Positions 1-6,081 of a stretch of DNA of 64,000 bases are shown here, in pieces. The translations under genes and the position numbers were made by a program. The notes below the pieces were generated by a model. It was given only the letters and a program-made list of their open reading frames with translations, did no database searches and was not told the DNA's origin. This DNA comes from Promethearchaeota archaeon. GTDB taxonomy: Archaea > Asgardarchaeota > Thorarchaeia > Thorarchaeales > Thorarchaeaceae. The stretch spans positions 1 through 64,000 of the forward strand of contig JBHLPF010000001.1 of NCBI GenBank assembly GCA_048939765.1. The letters are read 5' to 3'. The first letter of the stretch is position 1. Every line of letters begins with the position of its first letter.

Positions 1-978
1 GTCCAGACGTGCGACATATCTTCCATAATAGAATGAGTGTTCTGCAGTGCCTGAGCCATCAGAGAGCTCTGAGTGTGAATGTATGTCACCCCAGTAGATG
101 CAGGGGTCTGTATCAAGCAAATCCCTTACAATAATTGGATTGCTGTAGTAAGTGTTCTCAGTCACAGAGTCGTCCACCAGCAGATAGTGAATGCCAGGAG
201 TGTCTATAGTGACTGTGAACACATGCATACCATTGTCTTTTCTATCTCTAATCTCGTATGCAATGTCTGAACCGAACGTCTGTCCTGAGAATGTATAGGC
301 ATCTGGCAGGTCCGCAGATACAGTCTGGATTGTTGCGTAGGTGCTCAGGTTGTAGGACTCGAGTGAGAACTGCACTGTGCCCTTATAGACAGCACTCAGC
401 CGCTCATAGGCATCCCATGCCTCAACAGTGACATTAAACTCAGAACCAGCGTCTGCAACAGATGGAACATTTACCCATAGCAGTCGAGGTCTGTTGTCAA
501 ACATCACGCCAAGGTTGATGTTTACTGTTGACCAGAGTGTGACCGGTGCCAGGACGATGACGAGTATTGCCATCACCTTTGCTAGTTTCGGTAGAGATTT
601 TGTAAAGGCATACAACCTGTCTGTCCACTGCGATATGTCGACCCGCCACCTCAGGAAGACCTCCCACGTAATATAGACTGCCAGGTAGACTACAAACGGA
701 ATCGTGCCATAGAAGAAGGCCAGTTTCAGTGGAGATAGACCCAGTCCATAATCCGCAATATAGGTGCTAACACTCGCACAGACTGCCATGACTATTCCGT
801 GGCTTTTCCATGCTGGTTCTTTGGATAGAAGAAAGAAAGTCACACCGATAATCAGAGCAATGAAACTGAAGAAGAACATGTGAATTGTCACAAGTCCAAA
901 CAGTAGGACTACAACACGCGCAAATTTTCCCCGTCGTGAGGGCTTGGAATTTGTCGTCACGGACGTGTCTATATCCAA
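1..978 (-). CDS. Membrane-anchored PHP-fold/DUF3604-like metallohydrolase (partial, runs off the left edge)
   Basis: Not in the ORF track. Manual translation gives an open frame from TTG at 978 (after GGAGTG) with several N-terminal hydrophobic helices, a beta-rich region, then IYWGDIHSHSELSDGSG (PHP-type HxH...SDG motif). Confidence 0.75.
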   Translation of the reverse strand, partial: MDIDTSVTTNSKPSRRGKFARVVVLLFGLVTIHMFFFSFIALIIGVTFFLLSKEPAWKSHGIVMAVCASVSTYIADYGLGLSPLKLAFFYGTIPFVVYLAVYITWEVFLRWRVDISQWTDRLYAFTKSLPKLAKVMAILVIVLAPVTLWSTVNINLGVMFDNRPRLLWVNVPSVADAGSEFNVTVEAWDAYERLSAVYKGTVQFSLESYNLSTYATIQTVSADLPDAYTFSGQTFGSDIAYEIRDRKDNGMHVFTVTIDTPGIHYLLVDDSVTENTYYSNPIIVRDLLDTDPCIYWGDIHSHSELSDGSGTAEHSFYYGRYVARLD

Positions 979-1143
979 TCTTTGCACACTCCATCATGAA
1001 ACATGTCGAACCTGACGGGTACGTGACGTTCGTTCTCAGACAAGATGCAATCCCGAGGACGCAGAACGCTCTCTTAAATTAAGTCAAGTCTTCTGAAGGT
1101 ACAGAAATTCACTGGGCAGGGGCATGAAGAACAAAAGACAAGT

Positions 1144-1554: not shown

Positions 1555-1604
1555 TCTCAATCATACACCTGAGAAGGTCTGTTCTCGGGCTTGACTCTGC
1601 GTGA

Positions 1605-1617
1605 CATATAACCTTTC
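1605..1617 (-). promoter_or_regulatory. BRE/TATA promoter of mvhD
   Basis: Minus strand GAAAGGTTATATG about 50 nt upstream of the start. Confidence 0.55.
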
Positions 1618-1665
1618 AGATAGTAATCAATGAGGTTTTTGTAAGGATATCTTCGGCTGCATGCA
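1611..1665. repeat. Direct repeat, copy A (partner at 3966..4019)
   Basis: acctttcagatagtaatcaat (21 nt) identical in both copies; about 49 of 55 positions identical by manual alignment. Confidence 0.9.
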
Positions 1666-1954
1666 TCGTCCTATTCTAGGTCTTCTTAGAAGGCGAGTGA
1701 ACCCTCTCGACTACCTTCAACTCCCGTGTTCCACCAATCTCACGACACTCGTCGCCGACTGAGATTCACCCCACAAGTTGGCTCTTCTCTGAGTGTCACC
1801 AGTACTCTGGCCTGTAAAGGTCCCGCAATAACCTGTTCCGAGGTTTCCAACAGATGTCCCCATATCGTGAGCCGATAATGTTCTTTATACAGCTTATTGA
1901 CGGAGTAATGTTGAAGGATCAGCCTGCAAGATCTGGAATACAAGGGAATACACT

Positions 1955-3889
1955 ATGAGCTATGTATACATGAAAGCCCTCGAATCATCGCCTGAACGAT
2001 ATGACAAGGGGATCCGATGGCTTGGATGGGGCAATTTGGACAAGATTCGGAATCGCATAGCGGAGCTTGCTGAATCGAATGGACAAGATGTACTTGAGAT
2101 TGGAGTTGGAACTGGCACTCAAGCCATATTGTTCGCTGAGCGTGGCCTCAATGTTGTTGGATTTGACCAATCTGCCGAGATGCTTTCTATTGCCAAGTTG
2201 AAACTTGATAAGATGCAAAACGAGGATGCGGAGGCAAGGGAGATTGCGTCAGGAATCAGGCTCTTGCAGAAGTCCGCAGCAGAAATAGACGAGTTCTCAG
2301 CAGAGTCTTTCGATATTGTCACGTCCACACTGGTGTTCTCAGAGCTCTTTCCGTATGAACGAAGATATGTCCTAGCAAATGCTTTTCGAGTTCTGAAACC
2401 AGGCGGAGCTTTAATCTTGGCAGATGAGGTCGTACCTAGAAAGAGGATTAACCGGCTAGCATATGGAATCGTTTCACTTCCTCTGAAACTCATCACATAC
2501 CTGGTCACCCAGACGTCAACAAAGCCATTGCATGATATGTTGGAGAGAATAGAGGAAGCTGGATTTGCTATCGAACAGACTGTAGAGTATCAACTTGGTG
2601 CATTCAAAGTGATCGTGGCACGGAAACGCCAAGCTGCGGTTTCTTCAGATACATCGCTTTTAGTACCAGAATCGGATACTCTCTCTCCTCCAGCAGGAGG
2701 CGTCCTTTCTACCTTTTGGCAAACCGCAACAAGAATGTTTGCTCATCCTACTGACATTGGACTGATTGCAGTTGGTAATCCGACACGAGACAGCCCAGTT
2801 CTCTGCACATGCAACTTCAAACTTACTGTCCAACGACTCTGTCAGCTACTAAAGAGGAAATGTATCAATGCATGGGTTCTCGTGTCTCCGACTGGCGGAG
2901 ATAATGTCTGGTGTGCCTCCGAGGCTGGGAAGTTCAATGCAGAATCAGTGATCACTGCTATCAAAGTGTCCCACTTGGATAAGTATGTCAGTCATCGTCA
3001 GATTATACTTCCACAGTTAGCGGCTCCTGGTGTCAATCCCCACAGAATAAGGCAAACAACTGGATGGCATTGTATATGGGGACCAGTTCGAATGGATGAC
3101 TTGCCAGATTATTTGGAGAGCTTTCCTGATATTATTGGGAAGAAGACAGAAGCACAAAGGACTGTCACTTTTGATGTCCAGGAGCGCATCGAGATGGCAT
3201 TAGTCATACTGTTTCCAATGCTCCTGTTCCTTGGAGTCCCTCTATTCCTTTTTCTAATCATATTGAGCCTTTGGGGTTGGATTCTACCGCTTCTACTTGA
3301 AAGCGTATTCTACTATCTTGGGATTTTTCTCCTTTGGCCGAAAATTCCTGCGAGAATAGGACCAAAGAAAGTTGTGATCTATTCTACAGTATTCATGTTT
3401 GCACTTCTCCTAGGCTCGTGGGTATCAACTCAATTTATAGAGTCTGCATTTTCAAGTGCATTCCTATTCAGTGATATATTGGCAGCACTGAACTGGTGGC
3501 CGCTTCAAGCATTTATGTTAGTCCTAGCGGTGATGCTGTGGTATGATGCGGATGGATCAACTCCTACGCAGAGAAGTACGCTCCTTGCAAATGCGTGGAA
3601 CAAAGGGAAGACCAAGGTGTTAGAGAGATGGGGAAGTCACGTGTCTCCAACGCAATACGGGATAATCACTGCTCGGGTTGAGTTGTGCACAGGTTGCGGC
3701 AACTGTGTGGATGTTTGTCCGATGTTGATTCCAGAGGTTGAAACGGAGAGCACGAAGGTTCGTCTTAGGAACCCTGATCATTGTATCAATTGTCGTGCAT
3801 GTATCAATCAATGCCCAACCAACACGCTTTTCCTAGCCCCTGAAACAGAGGCTGCTAGACTCGCATTAGAGCGCCTTCAAAACAAGTAG
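1955..3889 (+). CDS. Fusion of class I SAM methyltransferase, HgcA-like corrinoid and membrane domain, and HgcB-like 2x[4Fe-4S] ferredoxin
   Basis: VLEIGVGTG (SAM motif I) and VLKPGG; GNPTRDSPVLCTCNF, GGDNVWCASEAGKF, HRQIILPQLAAPGV and WGPVR (HgcA/CdhD-like); about 4 TM helices; CTGCGNCVDVCP and CINCRACINQCP. Confidence 0.88.
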   Translation: MSYVYMKALESSPERYDKGIRWLGWGNLDKIRNRIAELAESNGQDVLEIGVGTGTQAILFAERGLNVVGFDQSAEMLSIAKLKLDKMQNEDAEAREIASGIRLLQKSAAEIDEFSAESFDIVTSTLVFSELFPYERRYVLANAFRVLKPGGALILADEVVPRKRINRLAYGIVSLPLKLITYLVTQTSTKPLHDMLERIEEAGFAIEQTVEYQLGAFKVIVARKRQAAVSSDTSLLVPESDTLSPPAGGVLSTFWQTATRMFAHPTDIGLIAVGNPTRDSPVLCTCNFKLTVQRLCQLLKRKCINAWVLVSPTGGDNVWCASEAGKFNAESVITAIKVSHLDKYVSHRQIILPQLAAPGVNPHRIRQTTGWHCIWGPVRMDDLPDYLESFPDIIGKKTEAQRTVTFDVQERIEMALVILFPMLLFLGVPLFLFLIILSLWGWILPLLLESVFYYLGIFLLWPKIPARIGPKKVVIYSTVFMFALLLGSWVSTQFIESAFSSAFLFSDILAALNWWPLQAFMLVLAVMLWYDADGSTPTQRSTLLANAWNKGKTKVLERWGSHVSPTQYGIITARVELCTGCGNCVDVCPMLIPEVETESTKVRLRNPDHCINCRACINQCPTNTLFLAPETEAARLALERLQNK

Positions 3890-3965
3890 GTTCATGCCTT
3901 TTGATGGCATTGGCAGTCATTCGCCTAAGGATGATGGTAACGGGCTAGTCTTGACACCCCATACG

Positions 3966-4019
3966 ACCTTTCAGATAGTAATCAATTGGTTTTTGTGGGA
4001 ATATCTTCCGCTGCATGCA
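3966..4019. repeat. Direct repeat, copy B (partner at 1611..1665)
   Basis: See copy A; overlaps the 3' end of the 3982..4674 gene. Confidence 0.9.
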
Positions 4020-4674
4020 CTGACCTGTTTCCTGTATCCCTAGGCCTGGTATGTCTGGAATAATGCTCGGGCCAGCCCGGCATAGGACTCGCCTTCCATG
4101 ATTCGAAATCAGGAAGATAGTTGTGAAGGTGAGTAAGTGTAAACTTGGTGTTCAACCGATCATTATCATGGAACAGACTCCTTCGATTTCCAGAGAAGAT
4201 AATCCGTTCAATCCTACCGTTCTTCATTCCGATGTCAATCCATTCTACATGGCTCCATTCTATGGCAATGCCGTATTTCTTCCATCCAATGCCAAGCGCA
4301 TTGATGATGATTGAGTCAGTCCGCCTCTCATAGAAATACATGCCAGCGGAGAATAAGAAGTAGATAGATAGGATAGCAAGGAAGAAGAGAAACGTCTCTG
4401 ACAAAAAGGTCTGAGTCACAAATCCGCTAAGAGTTGCTGCCAAGAGTATGATGATGCTAGTAAAGGTCAATGCGACAAAGAAATACAGAGCCTGTGAGCC
4501 GGTTACATACTGATGAAACACCTCATGATTGGGGTCCCCTTCAATTCTCTTGAGTAATTCACTGGACTTCATAGAATCCGGATGTAGCGTGGTTCTGAAG
4601 TGTCCCCATTCCTCGTCATATTCAGATAACTCTAGAATCTCTTCTTCTGTGAAGCCACTGTTGTCCTTGTCCAC
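3982..4674 (-). CDS. Hypothetical membrane protein (2 TM helices plus a possible PH-like C-terminal domain)
   Basis: Likely GTG start overlapping the TAG of the upstream gene, after GGAGG; two hydrophobic helices followed by IEWSHVEWIDI. Confidence 0.65.
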   Translation of the reverse strand: MDKDNSGFTEEEILELSEYDEEWGHFRTTLHPDSMKSSELLKRIEGDPNHEVFHQYVTGSQALYFFVALTFTSIIILLAATLSGFVTQTFLSETFLFFLAILSIYFLFSAGMYFYERRTDSIIINALGIGWKKYGIAIEWSHVEWIDIGMKNGRIERIIFSGNRRSLFHDNDRLNTKFTLTHLHNYLPDFESWKASPMPGWPEHYSRHTRPRDTGNRSVHAAEDIPTKTN

Positions 4675-5507
4675 TAGGAGCCCTCCTTGCGTTGGTGAGG
4701 CGTTCTTGGCGGTCTGCGCTTCTTTCTCGGTGCCACTTCCTTGACCAGAGCCTCGACCTCCTTCACAGTGCCCATTCTCTTCAAGACCGGCATCCCGTTG
4801 ATGCACACTCCTCTAGAGAGGCCGTAGTCTTCAAGCACACTTCTCTTATCAGTGTTGACGGATTTCACGACTACATCATACTTCTTCAGGTTCCTTGTCA
4901 CCTTGTCGACCATCCATCCGGACCAAGGGCACTGAGAGTTGAAGAGAATCTCGACGAGTGTCTGATCACTATCTGAAACAGCTCTCTTCCTTGAAGGTAA
5001 TAGTGATGGTTTCTCCTTTCCGCCTAGGTCCAAATGAAGCAAGACTCTTGTTCCGTCGCGATCTATTTCTCGAAAATCAAAACGCTTGAAGAAACTGGAA
5101 GGCATGTATTCCATGAAACCAAACCACTTGTCCCCCTGATACCCGAGTACTGTCAGACCCCCAAAAGACTTGCCCTTCTCAATGGCGCGATTAAGCAGAG
5201 CCTTTGCCGTTCCACTCCCCCATGCAGGCGGCACGACCCACATGCAGTTAATGAAGAGTGAGTCTTCCCCTGTGACGGGTTCTGATGCAAGCTCCAAAGG
5301 GCAGTACTCTATCAATCCCTTCTTTTCTCCTCTTGGACCAAGAGCAATGGTCACACCAAGGCCTCTTCTCATCATGGCTCTAAGCCATGACTTCCTATGC
5401 TCCATACACGGAGCCATGACCTCCTTCCACTTCTTGGGAACACTAGGGTCTAAGCAGATGGCCTCAACAAGGTCGATCTCTTCTGCATCCAGATCATGAA
5501 CTGACAT
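4674..5507 (-). CDS. GNAT acetyltransferase with C-terminal thioredoxin-like (YoaP-like) domain
   Basis: GLIEY, FINCMWV, WGSGTAKALL (GNAT motif A), FFKRFDF; C-terminal SQCPW. Confidence 0.75.
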   Translation of the reverse strand: MSVHDLDAEEIDLVEAICLDPSVPKKWKEVMAPCMEHRKSWLRAMMRRGLGVTIALGPRGEKKGLIEYCPLELASEPVTGEDSLFINCMWVVPPAWGSGTAKALLNRAIEKGKSFGGLTVLGYQGDKWFGFMEYMPSSFFKRFDFREIDRDGTRVLLHLDLGGKEKPSLLPSRKRAVSDSDQTLVEILFNSQCPWSGWMVDKVTRNLKKYDVVVKSVNTDKRSVLEDYGLSRGVCINGMPVLKRMGTVKEVEALVKEVAPRKKRRPPRTPHQRKEGS

Positions 5508-5595
5508 GATTGGTGTTAATCTGGGACAGGAATGACTTGAGTTTTTGGGGAGAATCAAGGGCTTTGGATGTATAGGCCTCGTGGGGCATGCCATG

Positions 5596-6081
5596 TCACA
5601 CAATGGGGATGAACAAGGATGCCATCACCAAGGAACCGAAGACCAATTGAAGAAGCCCCGAAACTACACCCGTGTTTCTTCGGAATTTTGCCAATATTCC
5701 AAGATGGACCAAGCCATTCAAGATACTATTTAGTGACACACCTAGGCCAAATAGCAATGCCCACGGAGCGCCATTGGCAATAGGAATGTAGAACAAGAAA
5801 CTCAGGAGCACGATTGAATGTGAAAATGCCACAAAGAATGCCTTGTCATAGAGTGATTCTCTTGGAGTGCCATCAGGGTTCTTACGAAGCTGACCCTCTA
5901 CTTCCCATGCTTTTGTGAAGTCTTCCTCTAGGAAGTGTAGCGCATTAGCGAAACATACCAGAAGAAACATTGTTGAAGAGTAGCTCAGAACCGAAACAAC
6001 ATCGGGAAATATCAGTCCAGCGAATATCGATGTTATGATGAGTAGAGTCAGAAAAGCAACAAGAGGCTTGAAGATCTTCAT
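5596..6081 (-). CDS. HXXEE-domain membrane protein
   Basis: LHFLEE motif in a multi-TM protein with N..H..G.....PG-like motif (NGLVHLG, NTGVVSG). Confidence 0.75.
   Translation of the reverse strand: MKIFKPLVAFLTLLIITSIFAGLIFPDVVSVLSYSSTMFLLVCFANALHFLEEDFTKAWEVEGQLRKNPDGTPRESLYDKAFFVAFSHSIVLLSFLFYIPIANGAPWALLFGLGVSLNSILNGLVHLGILAKFRRNTGVVSGLLQLVFGSLVMASLFIPIV

Follow-up and report, generated by a model that had tools for sequence, protein, structure and literature searches.

Among the closest described relatives of the gene discussed here are the mercury-methylating proteins HgcA and HgcB. It was shown only recently, and unexpectedly, that purified HgcAB takes its methyl group from S-adenosylmethionine (SAM) and not from methyl-tetrahydrofolate, that it forms methyl-Cob(III) with a Cys-thiolate as the lower ligand and that HgcB relays electrons through its two four-Cys clusters (Zheng et al. 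2024, PMC11588087). Proteins termed 'fused HgcAB', with Pyrococcus furiosus as an example, have been in the literature since 2015 (Podar 2015, Gilmour 2018, Capo 2022, Lin 2023), and Asgard sequences were already placed in the fused clade by Lin et al. 2023, who dropped the first 327, poorly aligned, columns of their alignment (PMC10083202). A ubiE gene beside an hgcA-like gene of Nitrospina has been mentioned in passing (10.1101/648329), and our literature search found no paper naming the CpaM or 'corrinoid protein-associated methyltransferase' family. Here we describe gene 1955..3889 (+ strand) of a 64,000 nt window, the whole stretch of DNA analysed (positions 1 to 64,000 of contig JBHLPF010000001.1), from a Promethearchaeota archaeon of the Thorarchaeaceae (assembly GCA_048939765.1). 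As judged by curated profiles, it puts the catalogued CpaM plus HgcAB-like module into a single chain and is a relative of the mercury system rather than a member.

Domain organization of the 644 aa protein

The open reading frame (ORF) 1955..3889 is uninterrupted and encodes CpaM, HgcA-like corrinoid, membrane and HgcB-like ferredoxin parts in one chain of 644 aa. Translation may actually start at nt 1970, since the Met that is invariant across 62 homologues is M6 and not M1. The class I SAM methyltransferase domain (aa 1-224, nt 1955..2626) bears the family signature MKALESSPERYDKGI at its N-terminus and the SAM motif VLEIGVGTG at aa 46-54 (nt 2090-2116), and it matches Pfam Methyltransf_11 at aa 47-155 (2e-17). 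With NCBIfam CpaM (NF043040, corrinoid protein-associated methyltransferase, a model with the status of hypothetical equivalog) it scores 247.5 bits against a cut-off of 180, aa 2-224 covering model positions 1-216 of 216. A flexible linker (aa 225-250, nt 2627..2704; pLDDT <50 at aa 229-236) leads to the HgcA-like corrinoid-binding domain (aa 251-403, nt 2705..3163), recognized by Pfam CdhD at aa 267-383 (2e-14) through the C-terminal cobalamin-binding part of that profile. Its cap-helix string GGDNVWCASEAG (aa 314-325, nt 2894-2929) reads NVWCASEA and holds Cys320 (codon nt 2912-2914). The membrane domain follows at nt 3176..3550, with long helices at aa 408-436, 440-459, 469-495 and 515-532 and a short one at aa 507-512 according to an AlphaFold2 model and hydropathy. 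The chain ends with an HgcB-like 2x[4Fe-4S] ferredoxin domain (aa 570-628, nt 3662..3838; two Pfam Fer4 motifs) whose CxxCxxCxxxCP motifs are CTGCGNCVDVCP at aa 578-589 (nt 3686-3721) and CINCRACINQCP at aa 610-621 (nt 3782-3817). From aa 252 to 625 the protein aligns with positions 2-349 of 350 of the NCBIfam HgcAB-like fusion protein model (NF043039), at 347.6 bits against a cut-off of 285. The profile E-values of these domain matches are far beyond chance. The AlphaFold2 model, built on the 62 homologues, is confident overall (pLDDT 86, pTM 0.86), and the residues invariant across these fused homologues include L47, G50, G52 and D71 of the SAM site and G315, N317, W319 and C320 of the cap helix.

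Several neighbouring families can be told apart from this protein. It stays below the cut-offs of true HgcA (NF040863; 151.2 bits vs 275) and true HgcB (NF040864; 42.2 bits vs 99), and its cap helix departs from N(V/I)WCA(A/G/S)GK, the Hg-MATE high-stringency rule for true HgcA (PMC10087281). The 644 aa sequence has no Cys beyond C620, and its ferredoxin part lacks the Cys residues that true HgcB has outside the cluster motifs, including the C-terminal Cys-Cys. The CFeSP large subunit model (NF003195) gives 82 bits vs 306, with only model positions 325-445 aligned. A class B radical SAM methylase is excluded by the lack of any Radical_SAM or B12-binding Pfam match and by the four-Cys ferredoxin pattern of both clusters. 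UbiE/MenG cut-offs are likewise not reached by the N-terminal domain (50 vs 158), which has the class I methyltransferase fold and by Foldseek resembles Coq5, CmoA and PmtA. The remainder of the protein is similar in fold to the integrative HgcAB model deposited as 9a0b (29% identity). There is no solved HgcA-type structure; in sequence, the solved structures nearest to this protein are those of CFeSP large-subunit cobalamin domains (PDB 2h9a, 4c1n and 4djd, at 1e-7 to 3e-9), and corrinoid binding by the 644 aa protein is predicted from homology to these domains.

The initial annotation of the window had read the ORF in much the same way. Its joining of methyltransferase, corrinoid, membrane and ferredoxin parts is borne out by Pfam and NCBIfam, the cap-helix Cys string that it placed at ~2903-2917 falls inside nt 2894-2929, its estimate of about four transmembrane helices agrees with the four long helices of the model, and its two tail-less Cys clusters are those located above. 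The HgcA-like label of the middle domain held with the CdhD profile but not with the curated HgcA cut-off, and the suggested evolutionary relationship to the Hg-methylation system is supported by a score above the HgcAB-like cut-off and below those of HgcA and HgcB.

Occurrence of the fusion

A search of 5.8 billion proteins returned at least 31 Asgard clusters of 631-677 aa with the same three-part architecture and 50-93% identity, drawn from metagenome-assembled genomes (MAGs) of Thor-, Hel-, Hod- and Promethearchaeota deposited at NCBI, JGI, ENA and Logan; several carry the NCBI name 'HgcAB-like fusion protein'. About 15 bacterial clusters (~590 aa, 33-37% identity), from Desulfobacterales and other bacteria, also contain the three parts, and many Anaerolineae proteins of ~540 aa combine the methyltransferase and the HgcA-like part without a ferredoxin. 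The fusion is thus genuine and recurrent, is already present in public annotation and is no assembly artefact. The CpaM half, the HgcAB-like half and their association are all catalogued (NF043040, NF043039) and common.

Within the phylum we sampled 301 genomes, including 77 of the host family (76 plus the genome of the window). A CpaM-like match with E<=1e-30 occurs in 138/301 and a match above the curated cut-off in 66/301. Eighteen of these 66 sit in open frames of at least 390 aa, namely seven of 645-672 aa, all from the host family, six of ~600 aa from one other genus, four of ~554 aa from another genus and one of 392 aa. The other 48 are stand-alone CpaM as far as open-frame length tells (158-298 aa, a few clipped by contig ends). 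Within its own genus the orthologue of gene 1955..3889 is patchy, being found in one of the 16 other genomes searched (G011, 60% identity); a further orthologue is present in a neighbouring genus at 57% identity.

Association of the methyltransferase with HgcA-like proteins

The partnership extends well beyond the Asgard archaea. Scanning one genome per prokaryotic species with the pattern G[IV]NVWC[GSA][SA][RA]G, with the true-HgcA motif ending in GK excluded, yielded 316 HgcA-like relatives, and 80 loci were retained; these span Asgard, Bathyarchaeia, Thermococcaceae, Methanohalophilus, Dehalococcoidia, Aminicenantes, Eubacteriales, Thermotogae, Spirochaetota and cultured actinomycetes. Using a hidden Markov model (HMM) built from the methyltransferase domains, we counted at first a CpaM-like methyltransferase at 74 of the 80 loci, fused in 20 cases and adjacent on the same strand in 54. 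Two of the six partnerless loci start near a contig end, and at two others a later pass found a methyltransferase. On the family HMM, partner methyltransferases score at least 104 bits and the other methyltransferases of the host genome at most 59.

True hgcA loci look different. For this contrast, we sampled 101 genomes from the class to which a Desulfobacterales MAG belongs, 45 of which exceed the HgcA cut-off, and fetched 15 loci; the true HgcA loci score 313-464 bits and all 15 read G(I/V)NVWCA(A/S)GK, in line with the canonical G(I/V)NVWCAAGKG quoted in the initial annotation. A two-cluster ferredoxin is adjacent in 14/15, eight of them ending in Cys-Cys, whereas a fused or adjacent CpaM-like methyltransferase was found in 0/15, with just two weak generic methyltransferase matches of 33-37 bits. 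Our analysis shows that the tie of this methyltransferase family to the HgcA-like proteins is old and close to obligate.

A CpaM-like partner and an HgcA-like protein also occur in aerobic actinomycetes, namely Actinophytocola sp. (L105), Rhizocola hellebori (L127) and an uncultured actinomycete (L137). The cultured carriers would be tractable genetic hosts for work on the HgcA-like/CpaM family.

Three versions in one genome

The host genome (3.37 Mb, 88.5% complete) contains three HgcA-like sets, one fused, one half-fused and one split. Gene 1955..3889, with its three parts fully fused, is referred to as type 1. Type 2, on contig C59, consists of a methyltransferase plus HgcA-like fusion of 579 aa (L002:730-2466) with the near-canonical cap helix GINVWCAARG, separated by a TGA stop from a 109 aa HgcB-like ferredoxin (L002:2476-2805) that ends in ...SSSCCS. 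Type 3, on contig C46, is made of three separate, tightly packed genes encoding a methyltransferase of 216 aa (L010:1492-2142), an HgcA-like protein of 328 aa with the cap GINVWCGSRGG (L010:2139-3125) and a ferredoxin of 74 aa (L010:3137-3361). None of the three reaches the true-HgcA cut-off of 275 bits (151, 192 and 149 for types 1 to 3). Contamination does not explain the presence of three sets, since the congeneric genome G011 also holds all of them. Three architectures within one genome provide built-in comparisons.

The end of the type 2 ferredoxin resembles the Cys-Cys tail of true HgcB. Type 2 occurs widely among the Asgard archaea, where its only annotation is 'methyltransferase domain-containing protein', and for metal(loid) methylation it may be the candidate of greater interest. 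An HdrA-like gene follows the type 3 set in three congeneric relatives. A predicted complex between the type 3 HgcA-like and CpaM-like proteins gave an ipSAE of 0.00 in a run without controls, which counts neither for nor against binding. We also considered selenocysteine at the in-frame TGAs of the C59 and C46 paralogues and their relatives; this was rejected, as the TGAs lie exactly at gene boundaries and the downstream ferredoxin is in a different frame in other genomes.

Phylogeny of the two parts

Trees were quick IQ-TREE searches with SH-aLRT support only. In the tree of the corrinoid and membrane domains (73 rows), true HgcA forms one clade (support 100). A strongly supported split (99) places type 2, together with a methyltransferase-HgcA group of Lokiarchaeia, on the side of true HgcA, type 3 joins the split type of Hod- and Heimdallarchaeota (94), and the type 1 clade (99) is nested in the classical fused-HgcAB group with the Thermococcaceae and Methanohalophilus forms. 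Six of the seven bacterial triple fusions make up a separate clade (99). The methyltransferase tree repeats these deep groups (type 3 plus Hod 90, type 2 plus Loki 95, type 1 100, bacterial triple fusions plus split sisters 96), which indicates that the two parts diversified together. On this phylogeny the three copies in the host genome are ancient lineages and not recent duplicates.

A rooted cobalamin-domain tree was obtained with five CFeSP outgroup sequences. It places true HgcA as sister to type 2 plus Loki (82) and has methyltransferase-associated lineages on both sides of the root, which hints at an ancestral partner that true HgcA has lost; with 166 columns, a long outgroup branch and true HgcA from one bacterial class, this tree is a lead and not a result. 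A single origin of the triple fusion receives a support of 79 in this tree, while the corrinoid and membrane tree does not settle between one and two origins. A joint reading of these data can be put forward tentatively, and we would sooner bet against it than for it: a SAM methyltransferase partner would be ancestral to the HgcA superfamily and lost only by true HgcAB, and Thorarchaeota would keep three anciently separated machines passing methyl groups from SAM via a Cys-ligated corrinoid to acceptors that probably differ. Type 1 would then be a self-contained variant acting on a new membrane-side substrate. Under such an ancestral partnership, type 2 would be a candidate Asgard metal(loid) methylase, given its grouping with true HgcA, its near-canonical cap helix and its Cys-Cys HgcB.

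The phylogeny and survey proposed with the initial annotation thus place the gene inside the fused clade, apart from true HgcA, and reveal a recurrent triple fusion. Its statement that such methyltransferases occur as separate genes beside corrinoid proteins was correct, these being NCBIfam CpaM, but the novelty that it implied is lost: the architecture is catalogued and frequent, and fused Asgard proteins already carry an NCBI name. It had named a prior characterization of the architecture as grounds for dropping its proposal, and in this respect the architecture turns out to be catalogued but not biochemically characterized.

Proposed mechanism and alternatives

We consider it the best explanation, and a somewhat better than even one, that gene 1955..3889 encodes a single-chain CpaM plus HgcAB-like module which methylates an acceptor with methyl groups from SAM via a corrinoid. 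The N-terminal class I methyltransferase would bind SAM and methylate the Co(I) corrinoid of the HgcA-like domain. The resulting methyl-Co(III) would be ligated and stabilized by Cys320, and the methyl group would then pass to an acceptor at or in the membrane, probably not Hg(II). Finally, the C-terminal ferredoxin would supply low-potential electrons so that Co(I) is regenerated. The initial annotation had proposed the same division of labour between SAM, cobalamin and ferredoxin, and as a proposal it is reasonable. All four steps are inferred, as the most economical reading of a protein in which the invariant Cys and the two four-Cys motifs are preserved and a domain of its own carries an intact SAM site. 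The SAM dependence of true HgcAB makes this chemistry more plausible, and the natural methyltransferase-HgcA-like fusions provide independent genomic support for SAM-driven corrinoid methylation throughout the superfamily. The membrane topology would also fit. The ferredoxin-fused forms have about four helices and the unfused ones, including true HgcA, about five, as estimated from crude hydropathy counts and the model; with an even number, the fused ferredoxin would come to lie beside the corrinoid on the cytoplasmic face of the membrane.

Several points weigh against this proposal. True HgcAB accepts the SAM methyl group without a separate methyltransferase (PMC11588087), so that the CpaM domain may have another role. 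We found no published biochemistry for any member of the CpaM/HgcAB-like family. No neighbour that would hint at a substrate is consistently conserved in the six contexts of orthologues (50-68% identity). The host genome, at 88.5% completeness, has no match to CobS, CobD/CbiB or CbiC, so that the supply of the cofactor rests on an assumed uptake.

One such other role, which we regard as improbable though not negligible, is that of a repair or priming module in which SAM and ferredoxin electrons rescue Co(II), while a methyl-pterin, a methylated substrate or some other donor would provide the methyl group for turnover. Reductive reactivation of MetH uses SAM and a one-electron donor, exactly the two modules held by this chain, and the host genome is rich in methyltransferase corrinoid proteins. 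However, in the contexts examined, methyltransferases that bind pterin or are of the MtaB/MtbA type are neither fused to the chain nor conserved in its vicinity, and the turnover donor of true HgcAB is SAM (PMC11588087). Moreover, retention of the methyltransferase at 74/80 loci together with the shared deep clades is more than is usual for a repair factor.

Slightly less probable again is a different use of Co(I), e.g. the reductive dehalogenation of halomethanes, with the methyltransferase in an accessory or regulatory role. A fused ferredoxin suits a reductive cycle, an inducible PadR-family regulator is encoded beside the module, and dechlorination of CCl4 by heterologously expressed true HgcAB was described in a 2026 preprint (10.64898/2026.04.26.720869). 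That preprint is unreviewed and covers true HgcAB, not the type 1 clade, and dehalogenation leaves unexplained why, in one phylum after another, the corrinoid protein is accompanied by a methyltransferase with a strictly conserved SAM site.

A mercury methylase like true HgcAB is very unlikely, despite the homology, the cap-helix Cys and the ferredoxin that the two have in common, and mercury is accordingly an unlikely acceptor. Besides scoring below both curated cut-offs (151 vs 275 and 42 vs 99), the protein has NVWCASEA where NVWCA(A/G/S)GK is expected, and its ferredoxin part has neither the Cys-Cys tail nor any Cys outside the cluster motifs, Hg methylation requiring the C-terminal Cys-Cys of HgcB and an extra Cys. 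As the initial annotation had already stated, fused-HgcAB organisms that were assayed did not methylate Hg (PMC4646819, PMC10087281); the cultured carriers Pyrococcus furiosus and Methanococcoides methylutens produced no methylmercury (also 10.1101/648329). In addition, true HgcA and the triple fusion occur together in the genomes of two bacteria, the Olavius symbiont Delta 1 and a Desulfobacterales MAG, which argues for different jobs. Hg methylation seems to be a side reaction of the HgcA superfamily rather than its natural job.

That the fusion stems from misassembly or a frameshift, or that the gene is decaying, might be suspected from the MAG origin of the genome (4.3% contamination) and the truncated regulator upstream, but can be disregarded in view of the uninterrupted architecture in dozens of independent assemblies from four sources, the conserved residues flanking the linker and the confident AlphaFold2 model.

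Genomic context and corrinoid supply

The gene is a stand-alone unit whose neighbours form no operon. Divergently upstream lie the N-terminal remnant of a PadR-family regulator (1740..1943, - strand, 67 aa), which is a full-length gene in relatives, and an MvhD/FlpD gene (1144-1560, - strand, Pfam 6e-47), which lies next to a 329 aa ORF without a Pfam family that runs off the window (1-987, - strand). Downstream are two further ORFs without a Pfam family, of 274 aa (3982-4806, - strand) and 309 aa (4674-5603, - strand), and a nucleoside-type ABC transporter. Over the six contexts, MvhD recurs once, Bmp once and a 270 aa methyltransferase twice, PadR being confined to the closest relatives. MvhD is a possible source of low-potential electrons, although its association with the fusion gene is inconsistent. 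In G011 and GCA_048882365.1 the orthologue is preceded by a divergent full-length PadR gene (220-247 aa), which suggests that expression is in general induced by a ligand and that this control was lost in the host genome. The C-terminal part of PadR is faintly methyltransferase-like, and the G011 copy has an in-frame stop. Within the genus the 274 aa ORF is otherwise present only in G003, where it is broken by a frameshift or stop.

Two copies of a direct repeat of ~125 nt, ~75% identical, bracket the gene at 1561..1690 and 3916..4045, the downstream copy overlapping the 3′ end of the 274 aa ORF. A simple insertion footprint is not favoured as the origin of this repeat. In a relative with a 93%-identical mvhD, the stretch from mvhD to the orthologue contains a gene for an M24 peptidase and a full-length one for PadR, and a deletion or rearrangement in the host genome fits this arrangement better than an insertion.

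The host encodes 11 proteins with a B12-binding domain, one CFeSP (on contig C49, 551 bits) and three HgcA-like proteins. These proteins show that corrinoids are used, apparently heavily, and the organism probably imports or scavenges them.

Comparison with known systems

Within a module that is already catalogued, gene 1955..3889 is an ordinary member, and by itself it does not reveal the substrate. What interest remains lies in the chemistry of the family, in the series of three architectures in the host genome and in the possibly ancestral methyltransferase partner; a single polypeptide should also lend itself more readily to expression and study than a system of several subunits.

Of the systems to which it can be compared, the Coq5/UbiE-type C-methyltransferases concern the N-terminal domain, for which they give the best structural match (4obw, target TM-score 0.74) at an identity of only 16-17%. 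The CFeSP large subunit of the Wood-Ljungdahl pathway (AcsC/CdhE) has a homologous cobalamin-binding domain, but type 1 lacks its TIM-barrel and N-terminal cluster domain and instead possesses a Cys cap helix and a membrane anchor. The partners differ as well, a methyl-pterin methyltransferase in the case of CFeSP and a SAM methyltransferase here.

True HgcA and HgcB, as in Pseudodesulfovibrio mercurii, have homologous corrinoid, membrane and ferredoxin parts. The true pair differs in having no methyltransferase partner (0/15 loci), about five membrane helices and the cap sequence NVWCAAGK, and its HgcB is a separate gene product with a Cys-Cys tail whereas the type 1 ferredoxin is fused and tail-less. 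The HgcAB-like fusion proteins (NF043039) are closer, sharing the corrinoid domain with its cap-helix Cys, about four membrane helices and the fused 2x[4Fe-4S] ferredoxin; in the classical members the methyltransferase is encoded by a separate upstream gene, while in type 1 it is part of the chain. This domain in turn resembles CpaM over its full length, including the N-terminal M-x-x-L-E...Y-D signature and the intact SAM site, and differs in being fused, CpaM being a stand-alone protein in most of the Asgard genomes that carry it.

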